64,000 nucleotides of DNA from an uncultured Clostridium sp. (GCA_947303785.1 CAMYZH010000003.1:596-64595); one strand, 5' to 3'; shown: positions 25,719-45,753, counted from the stretch's first letter. The notes: a model not told the origin generated them from the sequence alone. Numbers and translations: made by a program.

Positions 25719-25792
25719 AGCAATCCTCCTTAATAAAAAATTAATTTATCTAGTGTAAAAATTTATGTAACAAATTTATTGTAAATTATCTT

Positions 25793-26515: not shown

Positions 26516-26533
26516 AATAAACCTCTCAACATT

Positions 26534-28242: not shown

Positions 28243-28260
28243 AAATAATTCCTTCCAATA

Positions 28261-29709: not shown

Positions 29710-29749
29710 ATACTTACATCATTCTCCTTCTCTGTAGGTTTTTTTAGTA

Positions 29750-30511
29750 CTATTCCCAGTCATCTAAATTCCAATCTTCTTCAATATCGCCATCATCAGT
29801 AACACCTGAATCACTTACATCTGAATCATCTAATATTCCATCATTTAAAGCATCACTTACTACACTTCCACCAGTTACTAATTGGCCTGCATCATTTTTG
29901 GTTTGTGACTGTAACTTACTTGATGTTATTGTCACATATTTTAGTAATTTTTTAAATTTATCTAAATCATCTGTTTTTATAACTGCTTCTGAATTTCCAA
30001 CGATTTCTGCTATTGCTTTATCATCAGCATCATCTCCAATTGCAAATCCTATTTTAGTTGCATATCTAAACCATTTATTTTGTTTTATACTATCTAATGC
30101 ATCTTCATAATCATCAGTAGGATATCCGTCTGTCATAAATATAATTATTGGTAATTTAGCTCCTATTGTTGCATTAAGATATTGATCTTTATGCAATTTT
30201 GATTCAAGTTCTTTAAGAGCTGAACCAATATCAGTAACACCTCCTGCTTTAAGGTTAGAATATATAAAATCTTCGATATATTCTGGACCATTGTAAGTTA
30301 TCCAATTACAACCGCTATTAAATTCAAGTATTGCAATTCTTATGTGTGCATCTCCATTATGTTTTGCTTCTTCCTCTAGTGCTTTTGTAGTTTCAACCAT
30401 AGCAGCATTTAATGTTGCAATTTTTTCATTCTCCATACTTCCTGATGTATCTAGTACAAAAAATACTGTTAAATCTGGTCTTGTTTCAATTTTTCCTGGC
30501 ATATTTGGCAT
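29750..30511 (-). CDS. von Willebrand factor A (vWA) domain protein with an acidic C-terminal tail
   Basis: MIDAS motif VLDTSGSM and an overall vWA fold pattern. Confidence 0.8.
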   Translation of the reverse strand: MPNMPGKIETRPDLTVFFVLDTSGSMENEKIATLNAAMVETTKALEEEAKHNGDAHIRIAILEFNSGCNWITYNGPEYIEDFIYSNLKAGGVTDIGSALKELESKLHKDQYLNATIGAKLPIIIFMTDGYPTDDYEDALDSIKQNKWFRYATKIGFAIGDDADDKAIAEIVGNSEAVIKTDDLDKFKKLLKYVTITSSKLQSQTKNDAGQLVTGGSVVSDALNDGILDDSDVSDSGVTDDGDIEEDWNLDDWE

Positions 30512-30527
30512 ATTAAATTCCTCCTAT

Positions 30528-31844
30528 TTACTTTATATATATTTTATATTTTTCAATATCAATTGAAATTCCTGTTTTTAAAGGTACTATATCTTTAGAT
30601 ATAACTTTTTTTATTTTGCCACTTGGTGTTGTAGCATTCCATACAATAGTCGACATATTTGCTAAACCATATAAGTTTGGATTCGATTTATTTCTAACCA
30701 CTTTTGCAACTGGCTTTAATGCTTCATTTGTATTACTTCTACCTATTTGGAAATTATATATTCTAGTATCTTCTTTTCCAGGTGCTAAGAAATTATCTAT
30801 TTCTATATAATTTTTAATGTTCAAATCTTTATTACAACAATCACATGAAGTTATTTCGTTTTTAAGGAATACTGAATTACCGCATTTTTCACAAATTATT
30901 ATATCATTTCTAAATTTTGCAATATTCTCCATCCATTCAATTTCTCTTGGTCTATAATTTACATTTTTTATTAGAGCTTCTCTACTGAAAGCCTTTATAA
31001 AGATGTCTTTTATGTAACTTGGGAAATATGGCCATATACTAATAACATTTTGATGTATTGCTTGCAAAGGACTGTTACTCTTATCTTTAGGATCTAGCAT
31101 AAATGTAGCACCTTTTCCATATAATTCATCAGATAGTGCATCAATATTTCCACATTTTTTTATTTTCTTACCTTCCAGTGGGTGTGTATTTGTAAAAAGC
31201 ATAAATATTAAAAGTGCTAGTGAATATAAATCGCTCATTGTATCAGGCTTTATTTTACCTTTTCCCATTACTATTTCTGGAGCCATATAACGTGGTTTTC
31301 CTAAAACTCCCATATCTATTCCATTTGGAGATACATTATCATTATCACCAATTAAAATACTTCCTGTATTTGGATTAATGAAAAAATTACCATCATTCAA
31401 ATCTTGATAACTATATCCAATATTATGTAATTTTCTAAATGCAGAAACCATATTTAGTGTTGCATCACATACAACTTTAAAGTTCTTAAAATGTACATTT
31501 CCTAGAATATACTCTGTTATGGTATAATAACCATCTTTAACTAAATCCATAACATATCCAAATGTGCCATCTTTTTTTTCAGTTACATCAATTGGCCATA
31601 AAAACTCTTTGCCTGGTGTAGTTTTTTCTTTATTATTAACTAAATTTTCATAAAATTTATCTGGAACAGCTCCATCTTTTCTTTTTTTATACCATTTTAA
31701 AGCTTTTAGACTTGAATCATAATCTACCAGGTATACATATCCTTGTCCACCTTCACCTAAAAGCTTTTGAACAACTATTTTCTTTCCATCAATTGTACGA
31801 ATAATTGTGCCTATTCTTAATCCTTTCTCATCAGCTATTTTAAT
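30528..31844 (-). CDS. Divergent Ser/Thr protein kinase (YegI-like) with a C-terminal Cys4 zinc ribbon; there is no ATG start
   Basis: Gly-loop GEGGQGYVY, the segment ALKWY, catalytic YQDLNDGN, the APE motif YMAPE and CEKCG...CDCC. The frame is open from the TAA at 31854-31856 and its first ATG lies after the Gly-loop. The sequence AAAGGGGGAG precedes ATT and ATA codons. Confidence 0.7.
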   Translation of the reverse strand: MKIADEKGLRIGTIIRTIDGKKIVVQKLLGEGGQGYVYLVDYDSSLKALKWYKKRKDGAVPDKFYENLVNNKEKTTPGKEFLWPIDVTEKKDGTFGYVMDLVKDGYYTITEYILGNVHFKNFKVVCDATLNMVSAFRKLHNIGYSYQDLNDGNFFINPNTGSILIGDNDNVSPNGIDMGVLGKPRYMAPEIVMGKGKIKPDTMSDLYSLALLIFMLFTNTHPLEGKKIKKCGNIDALSDELYGKGATFMLDPKDKSNSPLQAIHQNVISIWPYFPSYIKDIFIKAFSREALIKNVNYRPREIEWMENIAKFRNDIIICEKCGNSVFLKNEITSCDCCNKDLNIKNYIEIDNFLAPGKEDTRIYNFQIGRSNTNEALKPVAKVVRNKSNPNLYGLANMSTIVWNATTPSGKIKKVISKDIVPLKTGISIDIEKYKIYIK

Positions 31845-32075
31845 CTCCCCCTTTTAGCTTTTGAATATAGTTTAAGCTTTTTGCCAACCAAATAAACTTC
31901 AAAATTATTGATATAATACATTTTATATATTTCAAAATATATTAGCACTTTTAAACATTAACAATTTTTTTAATTATATCATAATTATAGCTTTTATCAA
32001 TAAAAAAATGTATTTTATTTAACCTTAAAACTCATTTTAATAGTTTAATTTAACTATTATGCTTAAGATAATAAA

Positions 32076-32330
32076 TCAATTATTCCAATATTTTTTATAA
32101 AAATAGCATAACAAGTCAATAGTATCTTTTTCAACATTTTGTTCATTAAAAATATCATTTTTATCAACTCTTGTTACATATTTATTATCTTTCTTATTTT
32201 TTATAGATTGTAATATATCTATAGGTATTTTCATAACAGTTAATTTATCCATATAACCTAAAATCTCATACACTTCTTTATAGGTCTTAGCAGTAATCAT
32301 TTCTATTTCCTTTCTAAATTTCAATTCCAC
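32076..32330 (-). CDS. Truncated member of the small cassette-partner family (N-terminal half only)
   Basis: Shares the TYKEVYEIL...KIP.DIL motifs with ORFs 38745, 40637 and 43968, and ends right after the YxxYW motif. Confidence 0.4.
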   Translation of the reverse strand: MELKFRKEIEMITAKTYKEVYEILGYMDKLTVMKIPIDILQSIKNKKDNKYVTRVDKNDIFNEQNVEKDTIDLLCYFYKKYWNN

Positions 32331-33672
32331 CTTTTGGTCTAGAAGTTTCCTGTAATAAATCCATATTTTCTGCTATTCTGCTAGCTCCTTCTTCTATTCT
32401 TTCTGCGCCTATTTTTTCAAGCAAGTCAGAAGCATTAGGTCTTGGATTATCTTCAATTTCATGAGGTCCAAACATTCTAATTATTTTTTCAATTACTTTA
32501 TCACAATTTTCACTGATACTATTTAAAGTATAATCGTTTGTAATAACAATATCTCCAAGGCAATTACGATTTTCATAATAATCATCAACACTCGTTTTAT
32601 ACTGCTCAAAAGGAAGCCCTTGTCTATATTTTGAATTATGAAACATGCTTAGAACAGATTCAGGCTTCACAAATACTCTAATAATATTTGTATCTCCCAT
32701 TGCTTTCTTAATTTCATCTAATTCAAAAAAATATGAATCTTCTTTTGAATCTCCAAATGCATCTGAATCTGAAAATACTACTACATCCCCACTTATATTT
32801 ATAGCATCTCTAGGAATTGCTTTTAGTATATCAGGAAGTTTCCATAAATTTCCTATACGAAACTCCAGCACATCAGAATCAAGGTGAATTGCTCCTTTAA
32901 TTTTTCCAGCTAAAGTTTTTGAAAAAGTTGTTTTTCCAGAATCCGGATATCCAGCTACAAGTATCAATAATTTATTTTTACCTTTATATTCAAAACTTTC
33001 ATATTTAGCTTCATAAACTTCGTCTTCCGTTAATTTGGCTCCTTCTGTAACTTCATGTATGTAAAATAATAACTCATTAATATATTCTTTTCTTTCTTCT
33101 TCGCTTTTTATTTCCCTTAATAATCTTAAATTATTTGTACCAATTATTTCTTCAACTTTATCTGCTAAGTCTCTGATTGTTTTAGTATATTTTATAGCTT
33201 TTCTATTGTAAGGAATTTTATCCCCATAAATCCCTGCTTCAGCTGCAGAAAATCTTTCATGTCTTCTCTTTCCTAGTTCAAAAGCAACTAATACAGGTAA
33301 AGTTTGTTTATCTTCTGGGACCCAAAATTGTTGTATAGGTAAATTCTGTTTATCATCTGCCATTGTAATTCTTTCAGGTTTACACTTTTTTATTTTATTC
33401 ATAAATTCTGGATTATCATATATTACTGGAATTAAAAGATTTTCTGTCATTGATTCTTCAGGTAAAGATTCAAACTCTCTCTGTAAATTAAAATATTTTT
33501 GATTTTCAAATATAATCATAAAAATCTCTTCAGTTCTGAACTGAGTTTTAATACTAGGCAAAAAAACTCCTGTCGTTCCATTCTTTTTCCAAATCTTTAA
33601 TAATTCATATAAGGCTTGTTTTACTTCAGCTTGTGTTTTATAACCTTTTCCGCTTTTGCTTTTATTTCCCAT
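32314..33672 (-). CDS. Cassette large protein 1: C-terminal P-loop kinase-like domain (AAA_33/zeta-toxin-like)
   Basis: LILVAGYPDSGKTT Walker A motif followed by a DSD segment. The N-terminal 240 aa has no recognisable match. Confidence 0.45.
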   Translation of the reverse strand: MGNKSKSGKGYKTQAEVKQALYELLKIWKKNGTTGVFLPSIKTQFRTEEIFMIIFENQKYFNLQREFESLPEESMTENLLIPVIYDNPEFMNKIKKCKPERITMADDKQNLPIQQFWVPEDKQTLPVLVAFELGKRRHERFSAAEAGIYGDKIPYNRKAIKYTKTIRDLADKVEEIIGTNNLRLLREIKSEEERKEYINELLFYIHEVTEGAKLTEDEVYEAKYESFEYKGKNKLLILVAGYPDSGKTTFSKTLAGKIKGAIHLDSDVLEFRIGNLWKLPDILKAIPRDAINISGDVVVFSDSDAFGDSKEDSYFFELDEIKKAMGDTNIIRVFVKPESVLSMFHNSKYRQGLPFEQYKTSVDDYYENRNCLGDIVITNDYTLNSISENCDKVIEKIIRMFGPHEIEDNPRPNASDLLEKIGAERIEEGASRIAENMDLLQETSRPKGGIEI

Positions 33673-33800
33673 TAATTACTCCAATCTCATTAATTATATT
33701 TTTCACAATATATCACGATTTCTCCCACGTGTCAAATTTATGTTAACAAACTATCTACTTAAAAGTTTTTCTCCTTTTAATTCCAAAAATTAACTACAAA

Positions 33801-33835
33801 AAAACAGTAAAAATTTAACTATTTACTGTTTTTTA
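33801..33835. terminator. Terminator hairpin (aacagtaaa...tttactgtt followed by a T run)
   Basis: Overlaps the stop codon of the NUDIX gene. Confidence 0.5.
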
Positions 33836-34467
33836 TTAATACTTTTCATTTTAGAAATATACTTTTCATATATTGGTTTCATTTTTGCTTGGGTTGTGAC
33901 TTTTACAACATCATCAATATCAACCCATTTAACCTCACAATTTTCATCTTCTTTTATTCTTAAATTCTCAGTTTCATTTGCTTCCCATAGATAAACGCAA
34001 TCTAAATGTAAATGTGGTGATACAAATTCACCATTTTTAATGTGACCATCAATGGCCACTATCTGAAATCCATATAAATCATTAATTAATAATTTCAAAT
34101 CATTTATTCCGGTTTCTTCTTTTGCTTCTTTTAAAGCCACATGTATTAAATCACTATCTCCATCTGCATGTCCGCCTGTCCATGCCCATGATTTAAAAAT
34201 ATTATGGTATACCATTAATATTTTTGTTCTTTCTTTATTTATTATCCAATTTGATGCTGTAAAATGACACATTTTGTTTTTTCTTGTTAGTACATCTTCA
34301 AATGTGTTTATATATTCAAGTATCTGCTTTTTATCACTTTTTTCTTGTTCATTAAATGGTTTATATTTTTCTATTTGTTCTTTTATGTTCATTTTTTCTC
34401 CTGCCTTTATATACTGATTAATATATATGGGCGAAGCCGCAGCTAGATACAAATGTGCCCATCTCAT
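33823..34467 (-). CDS. NUDIX hydrolase
   Basis: Nudix box GGHADGDSDLIHVALKEAKEETGI. Confidence 0.8.
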   Translation of the reverse strand: MRWAHLYLAAASPIYINQYIKAGEKMNIKEQIEKYKPFNEQEKSDKKQILEYINTFEDVLTRKNKMCHFTASNWIINKERTKILMVYHNIFKSWAWTGGHADGDSDLIHVALKEAKEETGINDLKLLINDLYGFQIVAIDGHIKNGEFVSPHLHLDCVYLWEANETENLRIKEDENCEVKWVDIDDVVKVTTQAKMKPIYEKYISKMKSINKKQ

Positions 34468-34496
34468 AAGTATCTTATATTAGCTGTGGCTAAGTG

Positions 34497-35105
34497 TTAG
34501 AAGATGTTATGTATTTCTTGTAGTTGTTTTTGCAAGCTTTGAAGCGACAAAGCTTTTCCACAACATTTTTTCAGAAATTTCTGCCATTCTTCATCGTCAG
34601 GTTCATATTTTTTTTCTGGAGACGCTACCGGTACTGGTAGTAAACTCTCCTCCTCCGTCCATAAAATGACATATTTGCCATTTATGGCTAATATATCAAA
34701 GCTTTTATCATATTTATCCTCTACAAGGATAAATTCTTCTCCCGTTTCTGGCCAAATTTCCATATCTTCAAAAAATCTGTCCAAACACTTTTCAAGTTCA
34801 TCTGCTTGATTATCCAAACCTTCAAGTGTATTGGGTGTATCTATTTGAAGATACAACGTAGATTGTCCATCTAGTCTTTCTATGATAAATGATTTCCCGG
34901 TTGTTACTTCTTGGAAAAGCATCACTTCATAGTCTTCTGGCTCCTGCACAGGCTCTTCTATGCGGGAACACCCTAGAAGTTCAACTACTAATACCAAACA
35001 CACCACTAATACTACATTCCGAAGATTTCTACTCATTTTCTCCTCCTTTCCTCGGAAACCATCCCACAATACTCTTATCAATTGCTCTTTGAGCATTTGG
35101 GACAT
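34497..35105 (-). CDS. Putative lipoprotein
   Basis: Signal sequence and LLGCS lipobox; no other recognisable motif. Confidence 0.4.
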   Translation of the reverse strand: MSQMLKEQLIRVLWDGFRGKEEKMSRNLRNVVLVVCLVLVVELLGCSRIEEPVQEPEDYEVMLFQEVTTGKSFIIERLDGQSTLYLQIDTPNTLEGLDNQADELEKCLDRFFEDMEIWPETGEEFILVEDKYDKSFDILAINGKYVILWTEEESLLPVPVASPEKKYEPDDEEWQKFLKKCCGKALSLQSLQKQLQEIHNIF

Positions 35106-35225
35106 TTATAATAACACAGCTGCAATATTTGCAAGCCTTCTTTTATTATACCATTTTTTCTTATATTTTCAAGTTTTTCGCTCCACAAGTATTCTTTTCT
35201 AATCAAAAACTTCAATTTTCTTTAA

Positions 35226-36734
35226 TTAATTCTTTTTAGCAATCCTTCTTGCAACCCAAACTACTAATATAGCAACAATAACTCCAATAACAGGTATTAA
35301 TAACATACTCATATTAAATGAAGACTTTTCATTTAACACATTTTCATCACTATCTGAATTTTGATTATTATCATCAAATAGAACTTTCTCACCATTATAA
35401 TCAGTATCTGTTATAGCAAAACCATCTACATATAAGGTATAGCCATTTAAATTAATATTACTATTATCTGAAACATCATTATTCAATGCCGTTATATAAG
35501 AATCTCCTGTTAAAGTCAATGTAGAACTACTATCTAATGTAATACTAATTGATTTTGCAGTATTATCACCATTAATTGTTCCAGAATAACTACTTCCATT
35601 TTTTAATGAAAAATCCAATGTAGAAATATTATCAACTAAAATATCACCTTCAATTTTCTGATTTTTAGCATTTAAAGTAACATTTCCACCATTTGAACCT
35701 GATGTTCCCCATTTTGCTGCACCTACTTTTAAAAATCCTCCATCAGAATCATTATTTATTATTTCATTATTTTCTAGTTCTATAACAGTACTTGTATTTG
35801 TAACAAATATTATCTCACCTTTATTATTAACAATTTTAGAATCTTTAGCAGTAAATGAAGATGTTCCTACATCGGCATCTCCTGACATAGATTGATATAT
35901 AAATATAGATTTATATGTTTCTGAATTTCCATTTAGTTTAGTATTTGTAGCCTCCATTGTCACATTATTTAAAGTAACAGAATTCTTACCTTCTACAACA
36001 ACACCCTCTGAGGCTGTTGATATTAAATTAGCATCATTAACAGTAATATCTGCTGTTGAATAAATTACAGGAGAACCTGTTCCATGTGATGTATATGTAC
36101 CACCATTTACAGTTAAAGTTCCTCCCCCTCTATCACTTCTTATTGGAGCCGATGAATTTCCATCTGTTTCAGCTGTTACATTATTTGCAGTTAATGTTCC
36201 TCCTCCTGTTACCATTATTGCTCCAGAATTGTTGCTTGAAGTTTTTATATTAGTATCTGAAATATTTATTGTTCCATTTGAATAAGCAAATACTGCATTT
36301 GCATGTGATCCATCTGTCGTGACATTTCCATCATTTATATTTAGTGTTCCTTCTTCTACCAAAACAGCTGCATTCGTTCCATAAAAATCAGAATCATCTC
36401 CATCAGAATCTCCTGTTTTTGTAATTGTTGAACTTGAAATAGTAGATGTTCCTCCTGTTACTAATATAGCATTTTGAGAACCTTCACTAGAAGAATATGT
36501 TTGCCCATCATTTGTAGTATCACTTGATATTTCAGTTGCTCCTGTATGTGATACATTACTACTTTCTTCAGGAGCATGTCCATTTTCATCAGGCTTTTCT
36601 GGCGGTGTCCCTCCATTTTGAGTTGGCATTTCTCCACTTGGTTTTTCTGGCGGTGCCGCATATACACTTGTAAAATTTAACATTATTGCTAATACAATTA
36701 AAATAGCAAATAAGATTTTAGTCATTTTTTTCAT
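35226..36734 (-). CDS. Cell-surface parallel beta-helix repeat protein with a C-terminal TM anchor
   Basis: Signal peptide, a repeated GGTLT(A/V)NN...T beta-helix pattern, and a C-terminal hydrophobic anchor plus RRIAKKN. Confidence 0.6.
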   Translation of the reverse strand: MKKMTKILFAILIVLAIMLNFTSVYAAPPEKPSGEMPTQNGGTPPEKPDENGHAPEESSNVSHTGATEISSDTTNDGQTYSSSEGSQNAILVTGGTSTISSSTITKTGDSDGDDSDFYGTNAAVLVEEGTLNINDGNVTTDGSHANAVFAYSNGTINISDTNIKTSSNNSGAIMVTGGGTLTANNVTAETDGNSSAPIRSDRGGGTLTVNGGTYTSHGTGSPVIYSTADITVNDANLISTASEGVVVEGKNSVTLNNVTMEATNTKLNGNSETYKSIFIYQSMSGDADVGTSSFTAKDSKIVNNKGEIIFVTNTSTVIELENNEIINNDSDGGFLKVGAAKWGTSGSNGGNVTLNAKNQKIEGDILVDNISTLDFSLKNGSSYSGTINGDNTAKSISITLDSSSTLTLTGDSYITALNNDVSDNSNINLNGYTLYVDGFAITDTDYNGEKVLFDDNNQNSDSDENVLNEKSSFNMSMLLIPVIGVIVAILVVWVARRIAKKN

Positions 36735-36912
36735 GATATCTTCATTCCTTTCCTTTGTTTAGATTACATTAAATATATTAAATAAACATTAAAAAAACAT
36801 TGAAAAAATATGACTTTTGTGAAAATTTCTTTTCAAATTTTTATGTTGTATAAAAATTTGAATAGTGCTAAAATCTTATTGTATGAATTTATTATAAAGG
36901 AGATAAAAAAAT

Positions 36913-37509
36913 ATGAAAGAAAAAAACATAACAAAAGTTTTATTAATAATATCAGTCATTCTTATTATTGCATTAATCTTATTTATATTTAAAAATAATG
37001 GCAATAAAAATAGCACCAACAATAATAAGGCAAATGAAAACCCAGTAGCAACAAATTCCCCTTCACAAGTAAAAACCTTAAGTGTTGATGAAGCATTACC
37101 TATTCTTCAATCCAAATTTGAAATGATTGAAAAAATCTACTTTTCTCCCAACCTTTTCTTTATTGTAAATCAAGGTGAAGAAATAAAAGACTTTGATGAA
37201 ATTATTTTAAGATATGGTACTGAAAATTTTCTTGAAGAAATTCATAATAATATGCCTACATGTATTAACATTGATAATGGAAAATACTATTATATTCCAG
37301 GAGGCGGAGCCGTTGAATATGCTGGATTTGATGGCTTTGAAAATGTAAAGGTTACAGATTCTACAATTACAGCCACTCTAAAAACAAAACAAACTACATT
37401 TAATGGTACTGAATGGGTTTCAACAGATGATAAATCTAGTGAATTTACTCTTGTAAAAAGTGGTGATAAATGGTTAATTGATGTTTTTAATTCTTCAGAT
37501 TTTAACTAA
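36913..37509 (+). CDS. Membrane-anchored hypothetical protein
   Basis: N-terminal TM helix, 198 aa. Confidence 0.45.
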   Translation: MKEKNITKVLLIISVILIIALILFIFKNNGNKNSTNNNKANENPVATNSPSQVKTLSVDEALPILQSKFEMIEKIYFSPNLFFIVNQGEEIKDFDEIILRYGTENFLEEIHNNMPTCINIDNGKYYYIPGGGAVEYAGFDGFENVKVTDSTITATLKTKQTTFNGTEWVSTDDKSSEFTLVKSGDKWLIDVFNSSDFN

Positions 37510-37548
37510 TTTTTTATCATGTTCATGTATTTCTTAAAAATAATTTTA

Positions 37549-37590
37549 AAGCCAATATAGCAAGCAAGGGGAAGTTTTACAACTTCCCCT
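37549..37590 (+). terminator. Rho-independent terminator (gcaaggggaagtt...aacttccccttgc followed by TTTTTT)
   Basis: 13-bp perfect stem and T tract after the ORF that ends at 37509. Confidence 0.7.
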
Positions 37591-37837
37591 TGCTTTTTTC
37601 TAATTTTAAAAAAACTTCAACCAAAAGGCTTATATTTTTATACTATATATCATCTTATAAACTAAATATATTTTTTATAAAACTTCTCGTTTTTAATTTC
37701 AATAGGTGTTTTATTATTTTCATTTTCAATACTTTCTGTATTTTTCTTTTGCTTCTATTTTTTTGACTTATGACACAAATAAAAAAATACCAAAACAACT
37801 AAAATTTTTAACAACTTTAATCGTTTTGGTATTAATA

Positions 37838-38587
37838 TTAATCACAATATGAAATTACACATTTACCATTGTAATTTTCTATATGAAATTCCATGTTTAA
37901 TTGTTCTCTATAATCTTCATCATAGACAATGTCTACATCAGCGATATAATCTAAATCTGAATAGTCTCCCTTTAAAGTAATACTTTTAACTTCATATTCC
38001 AAGCCTGTAGCTCCTCCATCAAAATAATACAAATATCCATTTACGTTTTTAAAAGATTTCGTAAAATTATTTTCAAACCATTGCTCGGTCATATAATCAA
38101 GCATTTTTGTTTTATACTCTGAATACTTAATATTGGTTTTTACATAGTTATCATCTGTTTTTTCTGTATTTGTTCCTAAATCTGTATAGCCTAATGTCTC
38201 TAGTAATGCCTCTGGTGAACCTTGCTGAACACCTACTAATTCTAAATAATTTTGTATTGCATTTTTAATTTCGTCATTTGAAAAAGTCTTATTCTCAACT
38301 CTATTAGTTGTAGTATTACTGTTAGAACTTGTTTCAGAATCGATATTATTCTCTGTTTCAGCAATATTATTATTTGTATTAGATGTTTCACTTATTGTAT
38401 TTTGCAAATTATTAGCATTATTTGCTAATTCACTTACTTGCTTATTTAGTTCTGCTACCTTATTATCAGCTAATTGCTTATCATTATTTAATTTGTAAAT
38501 AAAATATGCCATTACACCAATAGTAATAATAAATAGTATTAATAAAATTGTAGATAAACTAATCTTTGTAGTTTTCTTTTCTTCCAT
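37838..38587 (-). CDS. Membrane-anchored hypothetical protein
   Basis: N-terminal TM helix and a coiled-coil segment. Confidence 0.45.
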   Translation of the reverse strand: MEEKKTTKISLSTILLILFIITIGVMAYFIYKLNNDKQLADNKVAELNKQVSELANNANNLQNTISETSNTNNNIAETENNIDSETSSNSNTTTNRVENKTFSNDEIKNAIQNYLELVGVQQGSPEALLETLGYTDLGTNTEKTDDNYVKTNIKYSEYKTKMLDYMTEQWFENNFTKSFKNVNGYLYYFDGGATGLEYEVKSITLKGDYSDLDYIADVDIVYDEDYREQLNMEFHIENYNGKCVISYCD

Positions 38588-38744
38588 TGTATCCTATCTC
38601 CTTCTTTTGTATAATTTATTTTATAATCATACTATATCATTATTTTTATATTTTGACAATGATTTTCTAAAGTTCTTTAACTTTAACAAATCCTATATTT
38701 AGCATACACAGATTATATGAAAAAGCCAAATAAAACTTGCTAAT

Positions 38745-39203
38745 TCATCTTATTTTTAAAATATTTTTAATTGATTTCCAAATTTTTTTATACCACTTTA
38801 TATTAGAAACATCTACCAACGATGTCTCTTGATTTTTTTCTTCAGAACTACGATTATTTGTTCTATATTTATTATCAAAGATAATATTGGGATTATACTT
38901 TTCTTTTTTATATTCTTCAAGTAATTGCATATCATATTTTTCTTTGCTTAATATTTTTTCTCTTTGCTCACTTGTAGCCCAATAATCTCTAAATAAAATA
39001 GCTATAATAGTTTGTGCAATATCAGATACATTTTGTTCTTTCAAAGTAATATCTGGATTATATTCAAAGTCGTAATCATAATTAGCATACTTTGAAAACA
39101 TTTTAATTTTTTTTGCAGGAATTTTATCAAAATCTTCTTTTGAAACATATTTCAATATATCTAATACCTCTTTATATGCATTCGCATATTCAACTTTTAC
39201 CAT
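38745..39203 (-). CDS. Conserved small cassette-partner protein A (~150 aa; SUKH/SMI1-like 'KIPxxI(F/L)xxF(L/S)' motif and C-terminal 'EKYNPxxIF' motif)
   Basis: Paralogous to ORFs 40637 and 43968, and in part to 32076. Lies 19 nt downstream of the large gene. Confidence 0.5.
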   Translation of the reverse strand: MVKVEYANAYKEVLDILKYVSKEDFDKIPAKKIKMFSKYANYDYDFEYNPDITLKEQNVSDIAQTIIAILFRDYWATSEQREKILSKEKYDMQLLEEYKKEKYNPNIIFDNKYRTNNRSSEEKNQETSLVDVSNIKWYKKIWKSIKNILKIR

Positions 39204-39222
39204 CTAAATTATGTCCTTTCTC

Positions 39223-40500
39223 TTACTTTATAGGTATTTCATTAGTATTTTCTAAGCTATGTTCATCTTTTGAAATTTGACGTTCAACATCGTTTTTGGC
39301 TTTAGAATCTTTTATCTTATCAAAAGTTTCTTCTGCTAGTGCTCTGACTGTTTTTTTATATCTATGACTTTCATAATATTGTTCTAATCCTTCAATAAAT
39401 TCAGCAAGTCCTGGATATTTTTCAATATGTGTCAAATCCATAACTTGTCGTTCAGGAATAGTTCTTCTTTTACCATCAATTTCAATAGACTCTTCAGGTC
39501 TTGCAACTAAAAGACCTCTTGATTCATATTGTTTTACTAATTGTACATATTCTTGAAATTTAAATAACAAATTACAATCATGACATCTTGGACTATCCAG
39601 ATAAATCACATCATTTGGATTAACTTGGCTTAACATTGAGCTCAAAAAATCTAAACCATTTGATTGATGTTTTCCATCGTGTGAAAACAATCTAAGCATA
39701 TCTGCAGTTATTCTAACTCCACGAGGTCTGCCATCACTATCAATAATTCTAGTATGAGTATTATGAGGTGCTTTCATTTGATTAATCCACAGCAGGCGTT
39801 CATCATTATAATCAATCTCTTCCATAATTGGATTATCTTCTTCATTTAGTAAAGTTCCTCTTAGTCTATCAATAATTGGTAATGTTTTTTCTCTAACTAC
39901 TAATGTCAATCTATTTCTTTCATCAACTAATCTAAGGATTTCCTCTTTATTTCCATATGCATCTTGGCGAACTAAATCTGTAATTTTATCATTCAATTCT
40001 TCAAATTTTTCAACTATGTTTATTCCAGATTCATTTAGGTCACTAATTGAGGAATTTACCATTTCTAAATCTTCATCACTTATGCTGTGTTCATATTGTG
40101 TTTTAGTCGCATTAAAAATAAAATATACATTATCTTCCATATATTGTCTTATCATTTCAAAACCTTCTATTCTTGATAAAGAATCTTTTGAACCTTTATC
40201 TTTAGCAGAATCTGGCACAAATGGTTTGTGAGAAATCCCATTAAAATCTCCTATTCGTTGCTGAAATGATGCTGTTATTAATCTATTATAAAGTTGTAAT
40301 ACCCCTTCTAATCCATATGAAATGTAAGTTTTTTCTATAGCTGATTGTCCTAATCCACCAGAAGCATTATCGCCTATTAGTGGTCGTAATCCTTCACTCA
40401 ATATACTTTTTATATTACTTTGAGAAGTAAAATGAAATGCAACATTTTCTCTTATATTTCTATAATCTTCCAATAAAGCTAATTTATTATCTATTTCCAT
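39223..40500 (-). CDS. Cassette large protein 2 (425 aa, cytoplasmic, no recognised domain)
   Basis: ORF with no signal peptide. It is unrelated to the other large cassette proteins. Confidence 0.4.
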   Translation of the reverse strand: MEIDNKLALLEDYRNIRENVAFHFTSQSNIKSILSEGLRPLIGDNASGGLGQSAIEKTYISYGLEGVLQLYNRLITASFQQRIGDFNGISHKPFVPDSAKDKGSKDSLSRIEGFEMIRQYMEDNVYFIFNATKTQYEHSISDEDLEMVNSSISDLNESGINIVEKFEELNDKITDLVRQDAYGNKEEILRLVDERNRLTLVVREKTLPIIDRLRGTLLNEEDNPIMEEIDYNDERLLWINQMKAPHNTHTRIIDSDGRPRGVRITADMLRLFSHDGKHQSNGLDFLSSMLSQVNPNDVIYLDSPRCHDCNLLFKFQEYVQLVKQYESRGLLVARPEESIEIDGKRRTIPERQVMDLTHIEKYPGLAEFIEGLEQYYESHRYKKTVRALAEETFDKIKDSKAKNDVERQISKDEHSLENTNEIPIK

Positions 40501-40636
40501 TAATTACTCCTAATTGATACATAATTATTTTTTATTTTATCATTACCCAAAAAAATAACAATAGATTTTAAGTTACTAGATAATGGTTTGTTATAGTTCA
40601 GGTAATCATAAATAAATACTATAATCTAATATACAT

Positions 40637-41104
40637 TTAGTTGATTTTCCTTATAAAATCACTAAAGAATCTCTTTATTTTATCAATAAAAGTCTCTTTT
40701 TCATATTTTATCATAGCAGTATTTTCAGTTTGTGCTTGTTCTTCTATCGACCATTTTGGTTTATTTTTAAACAAATTATCAGGATTGTATTTCTCTCTTC
40801 TTTGTTTTTCTATTTCACTTATACAATACTTATCATATTTTTGCCATAACTCATTTTCACCTTCTGAAGCTAGAAATCTCACATACATTTGAACTATAAG
40901 AGCTTTTGTTTCTGTCATTAAATCTTGTTCTAATAATTCCTTATCTTTATCTAATTCAAATTCATAATCATTGTCCATTTCTTTTTGCACATTATCAATA
41001 AATATGCTCGGTATTTTATTCAGTTCATCTTCTGACATGATTTTAAATATTTCATTCAATTCTGTATATGCTCTTTTGTACGCATTTTTCTTAGCTTCTG
41101 TCAC
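40637..41104 (-). CDS. Conserved small cassette-partner protein B
   Basis: Carries the NKIPSIFIDNV and EKYNPDNLFKN segments. Overlaps the upstream large gene by 14 nt. Confidence 0.5.
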   Translation of the reverse strand: MTEAKKNAYKRAYTELNEIFKIMSEDELNKIPSIFIDNVQKEMDNDYEFELDKDKELLEQDLMTETKALIVQMYVRFLASEGENELWQKYDKYCISEIEKQRREKYNPDNLFKNKPKWSIEEQAQTENTAMIKYEKETFIDKIKRFFSDFIRKIN

Positions 41105-43250
41105 TTCGTTTTTCCTCCCTTTGTGTACTCCTAGTTTGCATTAATGAATCTATTGTTTTTTTTGCGTTTTCATGCTCGCAAACAACACCTATATCTTTTG
41201 CTATTTGTTTAACAACATCGCTTGTTACCCTGTGTTTTTGTTCCGCTTGTTGACATGCAAAATCATAGTCTTTTACATAGTCAAGTATATACATGTTACT
41301 CTCATTTTTAGCTCCAAACATATCTTTATATTTTTGGACAAGTATGTCTCTTTTTTGTTTTGTTATTTCTAATGGTTGCCCCTCCTTAGTTTTCTTGATT
41401 TCTTCTTCAAAAGCAATCCTTACAACATTTTCTAGATTTGTTCCCGCCATGAGATTACTTTCATTTCCCAATAATACAGTAATACCATCTAAAATTTCAA
41501 ATGAAAAATTCTTTATTTCTTCTTCTGTTAAAGTATTAATTAGTTCATTTTTATATTCTAAAATCTCAAAAATTGCACTAGGGCGCTCTCCTGGTGTTAT
41601 TTGCAACTCAAGTAGTTTCAAGAATTTCTTTAAGTCTTCCTTTGGAACTTCATAAAACTTTCTTCCATCAAAGTATTTGTCTGATATATAACTTGCATAG
41701 TAAGATTTTCCCTCCAACAAAACACCAACTACATCCGCTTCATCTTTCACTTTATTCTGTATTTGGTACAATGGTAAAATGTGATTTCTTCTATAATAAA
41801 TTGATTCTTCATCAATGTTAGAAAAGTCTAATTCTGGTGAGTAATACAATTCCTTTCTATTAGTTTCAATTTCTACCATACCAAAATGTGTTCTATATTT
41901 TTTTTCTGCAATTTCTTTTCCAAAAACCATTTCTGCAAATTTTGATTTACTGCCTAATATATATTCTCCTATTGCTTCTTTGTCCTTACCTGAAGGCTCT
42001 AATCCAGCCAGCATTGTCCTTGCCCATGCATTTTCGAAATCATATCCACTATATGTAATATATGGCTTATCAACTCTAATTTCTTCTCCATCTAACATAA
42101 TATTTTTATGCTTTTCAAGGTAATGATTAATTACAGAATCTGCAAAAGTATCTGCCATTCCTTCTTCTATGAAATGTGATGGTCTATTTTGGGTGTAAGC
42201 AAAATCAAACATTGATAGCAAATGTGAATATTCATGAATTAGAAATCCTAAATTTCTATTAGTATTATTTTTGTGTTTATTTGATATTTTAATATTTCTA
42301 AACACATGATATGCTCTGCCATTTACATTTGGTTCTAAATTTGCAAAAACTATATCACTTCTTTTAAATATTATTTCTAATCGTTCTTTTTTATCATCTG
42401 TAAAACCATTTCCTAAAGTATCTTCTAAAAATTCTCTAATCATTGTTTGAGCTAAATTATCTAAGCTTGCAATTTGGGGATCAACATATCTACTAAAACT
42501 GTTAATAACAATGTCTCTGTTTTTCTTTTCAGAAATTTCAGTTAAAAGGGATTGTTTAATATCTTTATCCTCAATTTCTGCAATGTATTCTGCTCTACTT
42601 TTATCATCAAGTGTTTTTATATGATTTAAATGAGAATTATATTCCTCCATTTCATCAAGCAATTCTTGTTCATCAAAGTCGAATTCTGAATGTGATTTTA
42701 CAATTTGAGTTCTATAATATTGATCAGTAACATATGGTAAAAACATGTCACTTCCACCTTGCACCAATATTTTAGCTCTATTAAAATCAGATGAAATTGA
42801 TTCCATAACTTCTTCTAATAGCTGAATAGAATTACACTTTGATAAATATTGAATTATAATATCACTTGATTTTCCATTTTCATTTATATACTGAAAAACT
42901 TTTTCTTTATTTATTAATGAAATCAATTGTCCCTGATAATATGGTCTTGCCGCTTCTATTTTATCTAGTAATATTCGGACATCTGGTAAAGCATCAAATA
43001 ATTTCTTATCCAATACCTCCATCTCTATAAAAACGTCTAAATTTTTCGAGATTTCCTCTTCTGACATCTTTGCATAATTTTCTCGTATTTTATTATAAAA
43101 AACTCTTTCTTCATCGTTTTCTGCATTTAAACATTCTTCAGCAATTGCTATATCATCTTTAGATATATATTCATAAACCTGCTCAATATTTTCAACATTG
43201 TAAAAACTTATCAATTCTTCATCTGTAATTTTTCCGGGTAAAAGCAACAT
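41091..43250 (-). CDS. Cassette large protein 3: 719 aa with a HExxH zincin-like metallopeptidase motif (IHEYSHLL...EEGMAD)
   Basis: HEYSH motif followed by a downstream Glu. No signal peptide. Confidence 0.45.
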   Translation of the reverse strand: MLLLPGKITDEELISFYNVENIEQVYEYISKDDIAIAEECLNAENDEERVFYNKIRENYAKMSEEEISKNLDVFIEMEVLDKKLFDALPDVRILLDKIEAARPYYQGQLISLINKEKVFQYINENGKSSDIIIQYLSKCNSIQLLEEVMESISSDFNRAKILVQGGSDMFLPYVTDQYYRTQIVKSHSEFDFDEQELLDEMEEYNSHLNHIKTLDDKSRAEYIAEIEDKDIKQSLLTEISEKKNRDIVINSFSRYVDPQIASLDNLAQTMIREFLEDTLGNGFTDDKKERLEIIFKRSDIVFANLEPNVNGRAYHVFRNIKISNKHKNNTNRNLGFLIHEYSHLLSMFDFAYTQNRPSHFIEEGMADTFADSVINHYLEKHKNIMLDGEEIRVDKPYITYSGYDFENAWARTMLAGLEPSGKDKEAIGEYILGSKSKFAEMVFGKEIAEKKYRTHFGMVEIETNRKELYYSPELDFSNIDEESIYYRRNHILPLYQIQNKVKDEADVVGVLLEGKSYYASYISDKYFDGRKFYEVPKEDLKKFLKLLELQITPGERPSAIFEILEYKNELINTLTEEEIKNFSFEILDGITVLLGNESNLMAGTNLENVVRIAFEEEIKKTKEGQPLEITKQKRDILVQKYKDMFGAKNESNMYILDYVKDYDFACQQAEQKHRVTSDVVKQIAKDIGVVCEHENAKKTIDSLMQTRSTQREEKRSDRS

Positions 43251-43316
43251 ATCTATATTGGCTTAGTAATTCCTTTATATTCCTATATGATTTATACTCC
43301 AATTGTTTAATCCTCC

Positions 43317-43676
43317 TCAATCAATACTACAACTAGAATTTTTTTCTACCGTGGTTTGAAATTTAATTCCATATTCTTGTTCTAATATTTTCTTTTTTCG
43401 ATTTTCAAAAATATTAATATATCCAAGCATGTCTGGATCTACCTTTCCCTCTAATTCCTTTTTTACCCTTTTTTCAACTTCTTTTATAATTTCGTTTTCT
43501 GTCATTTCATTTGTACCCCTTTTATCTTTAATTTTAATTAATACATTTCCTTCATTTTCATACTCCAAATTTTTACTATTGGAAACCATATTTTTAATAT
43601 TATCAAATAGGCTATCAATAGTATAATTATCATCTATTAGAGATCCCCTTTCGAATTCTTTTACAAGTAATTTCAT
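43317..43676 (-). CDS. Hypothetical 119-aa protein
   Basis: ORF only. Confidence 0.3.
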   Translation of the reverse strand: MKLLVKEFERGSLIDDNYTIDSLFDNIKNMVSNSKNLEYENEGNVLIKIKDKRGTNEMTENEIIKEVEKRVKKELEGKVDPDMLGYINIFENRKKKILEQEYGIKFQTTVEKNSSCSID

Positions 43677-43967
43677 TATATCATAAATTTTTATTTTGGT
43701 TACAATTTTATAAAATACTTTATGATATATATAATTCCACTTGTGTGTAATAAACTGGACATTGTATAATAGTTAACACTTTCAGTTTTAATTTTTTACT
43801 GAATATATTATTTACAATAAAAAAAATCAACCATCTCTGATTGATTTCATATCATCTGTTCTATAAAAAAGTTCGAACAAATACGTCATTGGTGTGATTC
43901 GTAGACAGGTATGCAAAAAATCGCACCATTTATTTATCATTTTATAAAATTCAATTTTTTATTTTAT

Positions 43968-44426
43968 TTAATTTTTATGAAAAAGATTTTTTATTAAATT
44001 TAATATTTTTTGATACCATTTTTCTTCTTGCACAAGAGTCATTCTTATTTCTTCAAATGTTTGTGTTTTTTCTGGTATAATTCTATTTCTATTTTTGAAT
44101 ATATCATCTGGATTATATAAATTTCTTTTATCTTCTTCTTTTTGTATAGTTATTTTTTTTGCTTTTCGTAGATATTCGCTTTTTTCACTTTCATTACAAA
44201 TATAATCTTGATAAACTAATGCAATTAATCCTCTTGTTTGAGATTTTAAATTTTGTTCATTTAATTTTTTAGTTTTATCATACTCAAATTTATATGTTTG
44301 TGATTGAATATTTTTTAAAAAGTCCAAAAATATTTGTGGAATTTTGTTCTTTAATTCCTCTGATGTATATTCTAATATACAATTAAATTCTACGGCTGCC
44401 TCACTCAATTCTTTTGTTACCATATC
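43968..44426 (-). CDS. Conserved small cassette-partner protein C (start revised to the MVTKE Met, 2 nt after the upstream stop)
   Basis: gaaTGAtATGgta junction. Carries the NKIPQIFLDFLKN and NLYNPDDIFKN segments. Confidence 0.5.
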   Translation of the reverse strand, partial: DMVTKELSEAAVEFNCILEYTSEELKNKIPQIFLDFLKNIQSQTYKFEYDKTKKLNEQNLKSQTRGLIALVYQDYICNESEKSEYLRKAKKITIQKEEDKRNLYNPDDIFKNRNRIIPEKTQTFEEIRMTLVQEEKWYQKILNLIKNLFHKN

Positions 44427-45348
44427 ATTCTCCTTGTTCAATATGACTTTGTTCTGGTTGTTCTTTTTCTTCAATCGCCATTCTTAAATCACGAAAAGTT
44501 CGTTCCTTTTCTTCTATACTATCCTCTGCCACCTTTTCAAAATCTTCTCGCTGTATTTGACCTTCTGGCTCTATATTTTCTTTAGCTTTTACTAAAGTAC
44601 TTCTTTGTTCTTCACTTAAAGATATTTCTCCAGATTTTACTGCATCTTCAATATCTCTTATTATATCCATAGAAGCAGGTTCTATTGTAATTTCACCATA
44701 AGCACCCATTCCATAAACAAATCCATCACTACTTATTGTCTTTCCTTTATATTCGATTTCTCCATTATCAGTTAAAAGAAAATCTTCTACACTTTCTCCT
44801 GTAAATTTCCCATTAGCAAGCATATCTGCAATATCATCTATTTCACTATGTCTAGGCTTACTCATATCAATTTTAATTTCTGGAATTCTATCTTTATTAT
44901 TCTTAAAATATTCAGATTTTCTTTCAATTGTATCTGCTTTTTCTTTTTCTCCACGTTGTTGCAATATTTTAATAGTTTCCTCTGCATTACCTATTATTTC
45001 AGAATGTTCTAATCCATCAATAATACTATCAAAATTCTCTAATGGTTGTGGTTCAGAGCTTGTTATTACACCATTTGAATCAAATATAACATCTATTTGC
45101 TGATAGGTTTCATTCTTTCGTATATATACCGTTTCTTCAAATGGTTTGTCACTATTATCTAATAATTCTCTTATACATGTTCTGGTATCTCCACTATGAA
45201 GTGGTTCAAATGGAAGTCCTCCTAATCCAGAAACATATACAATAGTACTATCGCTTAAATCCATTCCTTTAGTTATAAATTCTTGATATTTTAAATAATC
45301 ATCTTCATAAAGCATCTCAATATCATTCATTACTTCTCCATCTATCAT
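44425..45348 (-). CDS. Cassette large protein 4 (307 aa, acidic, no recognised domain)
   Basis: ORF with RBS aaaggagag. No signal peptide. Confidence 0.4.
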   Translation of the reverse strand: MIDGEVMNDIEMLYEDDYLKYQEFITKGMDLSDSTIVYVSGLGGLPFEPLHSGDTRTCIRELLDNSDKPFEETVYIRKNETYQQIDVIFDSNGVITSSEPQPLENFDSIIDGLEHSEIIGNAEETIKILQQRGEKEKADTIERKSEYFKNNKDRIPEIKIDMSKPRHSEIDDIADMLANGKFTGESVEDFLLTDNGEIEYKGKTISSDGFVYGMGAYGEITIEPASMDIIRDIEDAVKSGEISLSEEQRSTLVKAKENIEPEGQIQREDFEKVAEDSIEEKERTFRDLRMAIEEKEQPEQSHIEQGE

Positions 45349-45670
45349 AATTATACTCTCCTTTATTTATTCTAATCTTTCTGGATTTGATTTTTCGATA
45401 TATCTCAAATTCTGTTCTTGGCATATTCTAATTAAAGCTTTAGCTCTATCAGTTTGTTCTTTTGTCGTTTTTGCCTTTTCATATACATCTCATTGTATTA
45501 TAATTATAATCTTTTATATATTTTTTTCAATCCTTTTTATTATTTACACCAATAAGTAAAAAAAAAATAAGCCAATATAAATTGACTTTTTAAAATGATA
45601 TGATATTCATTTTTTAAATTACTCAACCTCGCCTATAGCACTTTTTTACAAATTTGAGCAAAATCACCAT

Positions 45671-45753
45671 TGGTGCGGGTGAGAGGACTTGAACCCCCAC
45701 GGTCTCCCACTAGATCCTAAGTCTAGCGCGTCTGCCAGTTCCGCCACACCCGC
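45671..45753 (-). tRNA. tRNA-Leu (anticodon UAG) with an encoded CCA end
   Basis: The reverse complement folds as a cloverleaf: GCGGGTG acceptor, CTAGA-cTTAGga-TCTAG anticodon arm, long variable arm, GTTCAAGT T-loop and ...CACCA 3' end. Confidence 0.8.

Follow-up and report, generated by a model that had tools for sequence, protein, structure and literature searches.

The stretch of DNA analysed here (the window) comprises 64,000 nucleotides of an uncultured Clostridium sp. (GCA_947303785.1, CAMYZH010000003.1:596-64595) and carries four two-gene cassettes, in each of which a gene for a large protein (L1-L4) is followed by a gene for a small partner protein (S1-S4). All eight open reading frames (ORFs) were located on the minus strand. 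The four large-plus-small pairs had been recognized in a preliminary description of the same DNA and all eight ORFs were found as given there, except for the start of S4; the gene is real, but its ATG lies at 44423 and the earlier limit, 44426, was one codon over. The description had also treated the cassettes as a single array. Pairs 2-4 are indeed adjacent (38745-45348), but pair 1 is set off from them by 5 kb with five unrelated genes, including a NUDIX gene and genes for secreted or membrane proteins. A tRNA-Leu gene with the anticodon TAG (45671..45753, minus strand, identified with ARAGORN) lies 323 bp from the start of L4, in agreement with the approximately 320 bp given previously.

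Pair 1 consists of L1 (32314..33672, 452 residues, P-loop and nucleoside monophosphate kinase-like) and the truncated S1 (32076..32300, 74 residues from the ATG). With the ATG at 32300 as the start of S1, a codon preceded by a good ribosome-binding site (RBS), the junction is +13 nt; with a GTG at 32330 it is -17 nt. In pair 2, L2 (39223..40500, 425 residues) and S2 (38745..39203, 152 residues), both intact, are separated by +19 nt. L3 (41091..43250, 719 residues, with a zincin-like motif) and S3 (40637..41104, 155 residues) of pair 3 are also intact and overlap by 14 nt, S3 having a GTG start preceded by a GGGAGG RBS. In pair 4, an intact S4 (43968..44423, 151 residues, identical to database protein P0001) follows L4 at +1 nt; the L4 remnant (44425..45480, delimited by tblastn) is made up of a 307-residue ORF (44425-45348) and a pseudogene fragment (45349-45480). 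The range of -14 to +19 nt reported earlier for the junctions therefore holds apart from the alternative start of S1.

The small proteins are paralogs, as had been proposed. S2, S3 and S4 are 32-35% identical to one another (blastp E 1e-13 to 1e-19) and S1 is 27-34% identical to their first 75 or so residues (E about 1e-4). The four large proteins have no similarity to each other that was detectable by blastp at E<0.01, again as described. S1 was correctly recognized as C-terminally truncated; it ends at about residue 75 of the family profile of about 150 residues, the profile hidden Markov model (HMM) aligning at positions 6-76 only, and it has lost the long helix, the YNPD motif and the amphipathic helix that are described below. 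No remnant of the lost half was visible downstream of S1. The decay of cassettes inferred from S1 extends to pair 4, where it is the large gene that is truncated. Neither an att-like copy of the tRNA 3' end nor long direct repeats were found in the 64-kb window, and the small paralogs, at about 30% identity, share no repeats at the DNA level, which indicates that they are old and not the product of recent duplications.

The generality of this arrangement was examined in about 100 loci: 9 from a genome collection, 8 from exact-protein look-ups, 2 IMG/VR viral contigs and 80 from a metagenome collection. The HMM of the small family identified 114 small genes in these loci, of which 100 had an upstream ORF on the same strand that ended between about -100 and +150 nt away, a pairing far beyond chance. 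Adjacency and translational coupling of the large and small genes are obligate features of the module. By single-linkage blastp (E<1e-5), the 100 upstream partners fell into 47 unrelated families of 80-1,658 residues. Only five enzyme domains of Pfam were matched among 40 partner representatives, GH10, adenosine deaminase (A_deaminase), Amidoligase_2, RelA_SpoT and PHP, while MPTase-PolyVal and ArdC had no Pfam match among the large and partner proteins. Matches to LysR were discarded as a false partner. The swapping of partners is extreme: small proteins that are 53-63% identical to S2 adjoin wholly unrelated large proteins in loci L002 and L006. The earlier view of a conserved small partner accompanied by unrelated effector-like large proteins was therefore upheld on a much larger scale, with 47 partner families against a single small family. 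The bicistronic, tightly coupled operon with partner swapping is a trait that the module has in common with type II toxin-antitoxin systems. Some operons have two or three large proteins with the shared C-terminal tail described below and one small gene (L025, L075, L094 and L045), and in two loci (L039 and L044) the small gene was kept and the large gene had decayed.

The small proteins had been likened to SUKH/SMI1 immunity proteins, an assignment that failed when they were compared with profile libraries. Against Pfam at E<=1, S1-S4 matched none of the SUKH, SMI1 and Imm families and produced only unrelated noise (E>=0.003), NCBIfam gave no match, and there was nothing significant in PADLOC or PHROGs, even at E<=1. 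The DUF4065 (Panacea) profile was likewise unmatched in Pfam at this threshold. A profile of 50 family members had no match among PDB sequences and an exact-sequence look-up of the small proteins of the window returned no record. The AlphaFold model of S4, made from the family alignment, predicted an N-domain composed entirely of helices (residues 5-18, 23-26, 31-40, 62-76 and 79-103), with a predicted local distance difference test score (pLDDT) above 86 for residues 1-100. It was followed by a weakly ordered YNPDDIF turn, a disordered segment (residues 118-135, pLDDT <50) and a terminal helix (residues 137-149). No PDB fold matched the model. The SUKH/SMI1-KNR4 fold is alpha/beta and the small protein is all-helical, so that the identity was rejected by the test of fold as well as by that of sequence. 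A role as a transcription factor was also set aside, the N-domain being acidic and having no significant helix-turn-helix match.

In 89 full-length members, the C-terminal 14-18 or so residues formed a strongly amphipathic helix, with a mean hydrophobic moment of 0.75 compared with 0.38 for internal segments, and carried a net charge of +4.5, against -3.2 for the remainder of the protein. No segment in these proteins was hydrophobic enough to span a membrane. Invariant and nearly invariant residues cluster in the motifs NKIP, Y.F, L.EQ and E....YNP..F; the linker is variable and the YNPDxIF motif conserved. The small genes are under purifying selection, with a ratio of nonsynonymous to synonymous substitution rates (dN/dS) of 0.17.

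The family is unnamed and without a model in the profile libraries searched, yet it is one of the larger protein families of which this can be said. In a set of 5.8 billion proteins it accounted for 4,908 clusters at 90% identity (E<=1e-3), with no Pfam domains and no names, and an exhaustive HMMER search gave 4,432 clusters at 50% identity, 2,609 of them with E<=1e-10. Almost all came from gut metagenomes and the named source genomes were uncultured gut Clostridia, for example Clostridium sp. CAG:571. The family was absent from the PLSDB plasmids and the INPHARED phages and had two matches in IMG/VR, at least one of which (L018) resembles a mobilizable element. Nearly all members are stand-alone proteins of about 150 residues, the exceptions being a few tandem doublets and one fusion. 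The latter, P0247 (642 residues), is the sole clear domain fusion found and has a complete small domain, including the amphipathic helix, followed by an ADP-ribosylglycohydrolase (PF03747, E 2e-60) and DUF6508.

The one feature that the large proteins appear to have in common was found at their C-termini. Recurring endings were read from the 47 partner families and were of three types, each followed by an end rich in Glu, Gln and Arg: type A, F[ST]xx[EQ]IGK[AS]T[VI]; type B, [ST]xxxLG[KE]ETLxxxKD, which is that of the L2 family; and type C, [ST]x[DE]hhxKh[AG]x[DE]xh, which is that of L1, L3 and L4. The tails in the window, all on the minus strand, are residues 413-452 of L1 (32317..32436, aligned by hand), residues 381-425 of L2 (39226..39360, the motif extending across the L2 family alignment), residues 674-719 of L3 (41094..41231, aligned by hand and a seed of the type-C HMM) and residues 263-307 of L4 (44428..44562, matching the hand-aligned type-C tails). 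The tails are acidic (mean charge -2.5 for the final 45 residues), with an excess of Q, R, E, D and A and a deficit of aromatic residues. In the AlphaFold model of L2 the tail was a detached helix of low confidence (pLDDT 52-63).

The tail was examined in several tests. The type-A ("IGKxT") HMM had matches in at least nine unrelated proteins, all of them 8-26 residues from the C-terminus, and three of these matches, drawn from the background set, proved to be further proteins of the same operons. When 20 hand-aligned tails were scored by leave-one-out position-specific scoring matrices against 334 control C-termini, all ranked <0.33, with a median of 0.063. The three HMMs, at E<=0.1, recognized 21 of the 47 partner families (about 45%) and 9 of 507 control C-termini (<2%). 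Among the nine controls, three were extra members of the operons and five belonged to one family of 679 residues, a tail-bearing protein encoded directly downstream of a small gene whose upstream neighbor is the unrelated LysR gene. The ninth, a PP2C protein of the window that matched the type-C model, was rejected because it gave several weak coiled-coil matches and the similarity was compositional. The tail was found whether the large gene preceded or followed the small gene (L031 and L042); it is independent of gene order and thus a feature of the partner C-terminus on either side of the small gene. A Gibbs sampler for a single ungapped motif did not converge (15.7 bits) and an iterated IGKxT HMM did not spread beyond six families, results which suggest several types of tail with variable spacing instead of one motif. 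A search of the 5.8-billion-protein database with a 42-residue tail alignment gave short fragments only.

The tail is under purifying selection, dN/dS among L2 orthologs being 0.26-0.35 for the tail and 0.40-0.47 for the body, from small counts. It also covaries with the small protein. In pairs with unrelated large proteins, the similarity of the tails was correlated with that of the small proteins (Mantel rho 0.24, p about 5e-4), compared with rho 0.13 for a control segment of the body. The covariation resided in the N-domain of the small protein (rho 0.24, p about 3e-4) and was missing from its last 45 residues (rho -0.06).

These results are difficult to reconcile with the polymorphic toxin and immunity arrangement that had been proposed for the cassettes. 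In polymorphic toxins a conserved N-terminal trafficking or secretion domain precedes a variable C-terminal toxin tip, but the large proteins share no N-terminal region and have only the C-terminal tail in common. An immunity protein that varies with its cognate toxin is not what was found either, a single small family accompanying 47 unrelated partner families. The polarity is the reverse: the N-terminal body is variable, the tail is shared, the downstream partner is conserved and there is no trafficking domain, no LXG, Rhs, WXG or signal-peptide domain having been matched on the large proteins.

Searches for the activities of the window's large proteins gave leads of differing strength. Comparison of nine window proteins with SUKH/SMI1, Imm, PADLOC, PHROGs and NCBIfam profiles gave nothing significant, the matches to PADLOC being noise only (the best was PtuA, E 1.4e-4, over a coiled-coil stretch of L2), and a PDB sequence search with L1-L3 was equally unproductive. 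One of the large proteins had been described as P-loop kinase-like; the Walker A motif of L1, GYPDSGKT, is intact, but all of its family matches were below thresholds. These were Pfam Zeta_toxin (E 6e-4, 19.7 bits against a cutoff of 22.3, confined to the P-loop at residues 230-269), a PHROGs ATPase (E 2.7e-6) and, for residues 236-398, an AdkA-like protein in PDB (weak, E 0.02).

L2 was modeled by AlphaFold with good confidence (pLDDT 87, predicted template modeling score 0.82) as a globular domain, a long helical hairpin and the tail. The L2 family comprises only 34 members, compared with 4,908 for the small family in the same database, and His23, Tyr62 and Glu112/Glu115 of the globular domain are invariant. 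KptA/Tpt1, an enzyme with the ADP-ribosyltransferase fold, was repeatedly the top PDB match in Foldseek, but at E 0.2-1, which is not significant, so that a KptA-like fold may be taken as a lead and not as an assignment. Orthologs of L2 in L003, L100 and L101 were paired with S2 orthologs of 87-88% identity. A similar correspondence was seen for L3, the orthologs of which (81-85% identity) were paired with S3 orthologs in L005 and L103. The HExxH motif noted earlier in one of the large proteins is present in L3 as HEYSH, followed by EEGMADTFA, and L3 had no match in Pfam or PDB.

L4 had been taken as a complete gene and is instead the C-terminal half of a member of a family of 568-582 residues. 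In tblastn with homologs from L001 (576 residues) and L017 (582 residues), residues 235-582 aligned to 45480-44428, the homology running upstream to 45480 across an in-frame TAA. The segment at 45349-45480 is a pseudogene fragment homologous to residues ~235-280 of the 576-582 residue proteins, and a strong promoter-like site, TTGAAA-16-TATAAT, is located just upstream of it at 45530-45503. The part missing from the window is the N-terminal region of the full-length homologs, with the zincin motif HEMKH...NEGATQRFA. The corresponding HEYSH...EEGMADTFA of L3 resembles it and neither has a Pfam match; local alignment of L3 with the full-length L4 family scored only about 3 standard deviations above shuffled sequences. 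L4 also gave a weak match to TBP-TOTE (E 1.4e-3). Full-length relatives of L4 are located on mobilizable elements, and the L4 tail is also present on the 582-residue homologs that these elements carry.

An ORF of 119 codons (43317..43676, minus strand) lies between pairs 3 and 4 and has a relative in L103. It matched no family in Pfam, NCBIfam, PADLOC or PHROGs. Its last 62 residues are 97% identical to the product of a 62-codon gene directly upstream of the L3 ortholog in L103 (L103 5594-5782) and, judged from this sequence match, are probably a tiny third gene of the L3 cassette. The sole similarity between cassettes at the DNA level is a 38-nt stretch that covers the start codon and upstream region of L1 (33666-33703) and L2 (40494-40531), which are 74% identical there; it may be a region for translation initiation or regulation that the two genes have in common. 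Between the convergent genes 36913-37509 (plus) and 37838-38587 (minus) are two strong hairpins of the terminator type, at 37562-37595 (plus strand) and 37786-37833 (minus strand), which face each other and mark the end of the transcription unit that follows S2.

Beyond the window, the module was found on mobile elements. Nine of the 30 locus groups of at least 8 kb had a relaxase, serine recombinase or DUF6076 gene and are integrative mobilizable elements. The order of genes in the elements is NikA/MobC-like, MobA/VirD2 relaxase (PF03432), one to three tail-bearing proteins and the small gene, and in 8 of the 30 longer locus groups a relaxase accompanied by NikA/MobC was found directly upstream of the module. 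A divergent DUF6076 gene, a Bro-N gene and a serine recombinase are also present, and the elements are inserted in a murA-like gene of the EPSP_synthase family. Such a recurrent integrative mobilizable element carrying the module was seen in L014-L017, L039, L044, L061 and L075, and one of its small-protein clusters was represented on up to 94 contigs. There was no mention of DUF6076 in the literature searched.

The module is also located in a tRNA-linked hypervariable island of the chromosome. The flanks of the window encode chromosomal housekeeping functions (ClpB, Mur ligase, ABC transporters, dapA/dapB, sulfatase, UDPGP and P-type ATPase). Comparison with relatives delimited a strain-variable island (23927..45670), extending from SpoIIM and XerD-like genes to the tRNA-Leu, which is its fixed boundary; the island holds all four pairs and unrelated cargo. 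The same tRNA-Leu occupies the same boundary in L003, L100, L101 and L103. In these four relatives the frame is dapB - dapA - (dCMP deaminase) - polysaccharide deacetylase - tRNA-Leu ... SpoIIM - XerD-like recombinase, with just 4.5-12 kb of differing content between the flanks. L101 has one L2-type pair and a Bro-N fragment; L003 has one L2-type pair and a chimeric remnant of a small gene; L100 has a 568-residue protein with a small gene and two tandem copies of a unit made up of an L2-type gene, a small gene, Bro-N and ORFs of 40 and 170 codons; and L103 has an L3-type pair, other genes and cobW/DUF5640. In addition to its four pairs, the island of the window has other cargo amounting to about 12 kb, among it the NUDIX gene and a triad of vWA, PP2C and protein-kinase genes. 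The number of cassettes at this one site thus varied between relatives (1, 3, 1 and 4 pairs), and the suggestion of a hotspot was borne out, the tRNA-Leu site providing a clear case of one whose cassettes vary from strain to strain.

The relatives also showed how the cassettes are rearranged. In L100 (2227-12512) a unit of about 4 kb, with an L2-type protein of 425 residues, has been duplicated in tandem, and its small genes are chimeric, with an identical C-terminal 40 residues and N-domains that are 52% and 73% identical to that of S2. L003 has a 235-residue ORF (3086-3793) that ends in the C-terminal half of a small gene. These chimeras indicate that cassettes are reshuffled and deleted by recombination inside the small genes. 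The variable region also differs between relatives at its inner edge, where a cobW-family GTPase and DUF5640 lie beside SpoIIM in the window (24102-25718) and in L103 (13146-14749) and not in L100, L101 or L003. The triad of the island, all on the minus strand, consists of a PP2C phosphatase (28261-29709), a vWA protein (29750-30511) and a Ser/Thr protein kinase (30528-31550). The first ATG of the kinase gene lies downstream of the in-frame sequence for its Gly-rich loop and ALKW lysine region (31551 to about 31835), and none of the start codons ATG, GTG and TTG occurs between the preceding stop and that ATG. This implies that either the gene is damaged or translation begins at a non-canonical codon, ATA or ATT, with a GGGGGAG RBS before it.

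The module established by these observations consists of a variable enzyme body, a short shared tail and a conserved helical protein with a membrane-type helix. The interpretation that we favor, tentatively and with somewhat less than even confidence, is that the small protein is a tail-docking adaptor for interchangeable cargo enzymes, possibly exported by conjugative secretion. The large genes would encode interchangeable cytoplasmic enzymes, represented in the window by a P-loop kinase-like protein, a possible ADP-ribosyltransferase fold and zincin-motif proteins, whose only common feature would be the short, acidic, helix-prone C-terminal tail. The small protein would have four parts, the five-helix N-domain, the YNPDxIF motif, the disordered linker and the cationic amphipathic helix. 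Because it is conserved while its neighbors change fold, it would not recognize individual catalytic domains and the only shared target is the tail, to which the N-domain would bind. The cationic amphipathic C-terminus suggests the membrane as the place of action, and through this helix the complex may be held at its inner face. Motifs that are strictly conserved in the small protein, and constant across partners, suggest a further common interaction, in which the invariant surface motifs NKIP, EQN and YNPDxIF would contact a common third component. In the most speculative step, this component would be the coupling protein of a conjugative type IV secretion system (T4SS); because the module often follows a relaxase in mobilizable elements, hand-over to such a coupling protein is the fate that we prefer. 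The enzymes might thereby be exported, or escort mobilized DNA, into recipient cells. Delivery to a T4SS is inference only, and the complete version, in which gut Clostridia and their elements use a 150-residue membrane-associating adaptor to read the tail and inject the enzymes through a conjugative T4SS into recipient or rival cells, is in our estimate unlikely.

A number of observations weigh against the adaptor interpretation. 1) There is no type IV secretion or relaxase gene in the 64-kb window, and no T4SS or coupling-protein gene was seen in any of the loci fetched. 2) The small family is absent from sequenced plasmids, and about 70% of the loci have no hallmark of a mobile element within 6 kb. 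3) No homology to known secretion adaptors was found. 4) The models recognize no tail in about half of the partner families, and for L1 and L3 the tail gives a weak signal (0.25 and 0.29 in the leave-one-out ranking). 5) The hand-made tail alignments are biased by selection, a bias limited by the leave-one-out and control tests, and the covariation of the tail with the N-domain could be due in part to co-inheritance of adjacent DNA. 6) Pair 4, with its large gene decayed and its small gene intact, has undergone the decay that is expected of toxin-antitoxin pairs.

The last point leads to the main rival, which is also the nearest version of the idea originally proposed for these cassettes. The large protein would be a growth-arresting toxin and the small protein a hyperpromiscuous antitoxin or immunity protein that neutralizes it by direct binding, in the manner of Panacea (DUF4065). 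By analogy this is a possible explanation, if not a likely one. It would account for the translationally coupled two-gene operons with partner swapping, for partner domains typical of toxins (RelA/SpoT, the Zeta-like P-loop, the possible ADP-ribosyltransferase fold and the deaminase), for the presence of the module on mobile elements and in a variable island, and for the retention of the small gene while the large gene decays in pair 4, L039 and L044. The fusion of the small domain to ADP-ribosylglycohydrolase, an antidote-type enzyme, would fit as well, and there is precedent for a promiscuous antitoxin domain (PMC8832971, PMC10440598). However, the partners, at up to 1,658 residues, are far larger than typical type II toxins, and they share a tail that cognate neutralization of catalytic domains would not need. 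S1 is truncated beside an apparently intact L1, some operons encode several tail-bearing proteins for one small gene, and the strictly conserved motifs and membrane-type helix would be left without a role. No DNA-binding domain was detected in the small protein, the N-domain of which is acidic, and there was no match to an antitoxin in PADLOC or Pfam. For a conserved protein to confer specific immunity against dozens of unrelated catalytic domains, it would have to act through the shared tail or be promiscuous in the way that PanA is. The shared adaptor was preferred to cognate immunity because of the operons with several tails, the intact L1 next to a truncated S1 and the approximately 30% of loci that lie directly downstream of a relaxase gene.

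A two-gene defence system against phages or plasmids, with the small protein as a common executioner or membrane anchor and the large proteins sensing or acting on invaders, appears distinctly unlikely. The vWA/PP2C/kinase triad in the same island, the variation of the hotspot between strains, the likeness of the cationic amphipathic helix to membrane-active peptides and the weak TBP-TOTE match of L4 (at the E value given above) could be cited in its support. On the other hand, no PADLOC model was matched, the partners are enzyme-like rather than sensor-like, and a position just downstream of a relaxase suits the offensive or establishment functions of an element equally well or better. The near absence of the family from phage collections also means that no counterpart in an arms race is visible.

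It is very unlikely, in our judgment, that the small protein is a dedicated folding or stability chaperone, or an adaptor for proteolysis, with the tail as a chaperone-addiction or degron-like extension and without export. Chaperone-addiction extensions occur in SecB-like toxin-antitoxin-chaperone systems, and by that analogy a tail predicted as a detached helix of low confidence, its covariation with the N-domain and the translational coupling would all be understandable; the amphipathic membrane-type helix and the linkage to relaxases would be left unexplained, and no similarity to SecB or other chaperones was found. That the two genes have no functional coupling, the small gene being a selfish or structural recombination anchor that shuffles its neighbors, would suit the chimeric small genes and the tandem duplication bounded by small genes in L100 and the chimeric remnant in L003, but is highly improbable given the purifying selection on the small genes (dN/dS 0.17), paralogs only about 30% identical and without DNA-level repeats in the window, the tight translational coupling and the conservation of the tail at the protein level in either gene order.

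The small family, the shared tail and the link to mobilizable elements had no match in the profile libraries, named proteins or literature searched. Whichever explanation holds, the neighborhood of the small gene groups dozens of "dark" protein families into a single functional class. If the small protein is an adaptor, tail and adaptor together would be a sequence handle on the proteins that the mobile elements of abundant, uncultured Clostridia of the human gut deliver or deploy, and the tail a portable tag for protein targeting. If it is an antitoxin, it would be the second hyperpromiscuous antitoxin of the Panacea kind, with a different fold.

Several known systems resemble the module in part. 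Like SUKH/SMI1-KNR4 proteins, the small protein is cytoplasmic and encoded directly downstream of diverse effector-like genes, often in arrays with decayed copies; unlike them, it has no HMM match and an all-alpha fold, its partners have no N-terminal trafficking domains, and it is the conserved member of the pair and the partners are the variable ones, which reverses the pattern of cognate immunity. The polyvalent proteins, or escort effectors, of conjugative elements and phages, for which delivery with DNA has been proposed (PMC5512222), have overlapping domains (zincin metallopeptidase, ADP-ribosyltransferase and RelA/SpoT) and are found on mobile elements near transfer genes. In these proteins, however, many domains are fused in a giant polypeptide, whereas here the enzymes are separate and have a common tail and a partner. 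In the NetFlax network, one domain, that of the Panacea antitoxins (PanA, DUF4065), neutralizes dozens of unrelated toxins (PMC8832971, PMC10440598). A conserved small domain, two-gene operons, dozens of unrelated partners, swapping and partners of the RelA/SpoT type are features of both systems, whereas the absence of a DUF4065 match, the much larger partners that share a tail, the membrane-type amphipathic helix and the operons with multiple partners set the present module apart.

The closest parallels to a tail-reading adaptor are found in type IV secretion. The XVIPCD effectors of the Xanthomonas and Stenotrophomonas T4SS have an enzymatic head and a C-terminal region that is read by the coupling protein (PMC8740702). 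Their combination of a variable N-terminal head with a common C-terminal region is a layout that the large proteins may share, and they are encoded by scattered or clustered chromosomal genes with a small gene immediately downstream. The XVIPCD is folded and has about 120 residues, whereas the tail described here has about 35-45 and is poorly conserved; the downstream genes in Xanthomonas encode variable cognate immunity lipoproteins, whereas the protein here is conserved; and the XVIPCD system is Gram-negative, with no homology detected. In the Legionella Dot/Icm system, the adaptors IcmS, IcmW and LvgA and Glu-rich (E-block) C-terminal signals serve in effector recruitment, as does DotM (PMC9302130). 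Small acidic adaptors thus bring many unrelated effectors to the coupling protein by way of short C-terminal motifs, and the tails described here are likewise acidic and rich in Glu and Gln. The Legionella adaptors differ in being encoded once, in the secretion locus, whereas the small protein is encoded beside each partner; no homology was found, and no secretion system was identified here. If the proposal of export is correct, effector recruitment of the XVIPCD or IcmSW kind would have a counterpart in Gram-positive bacteria, with cassettes that gather at tRNA-linked hotspots.

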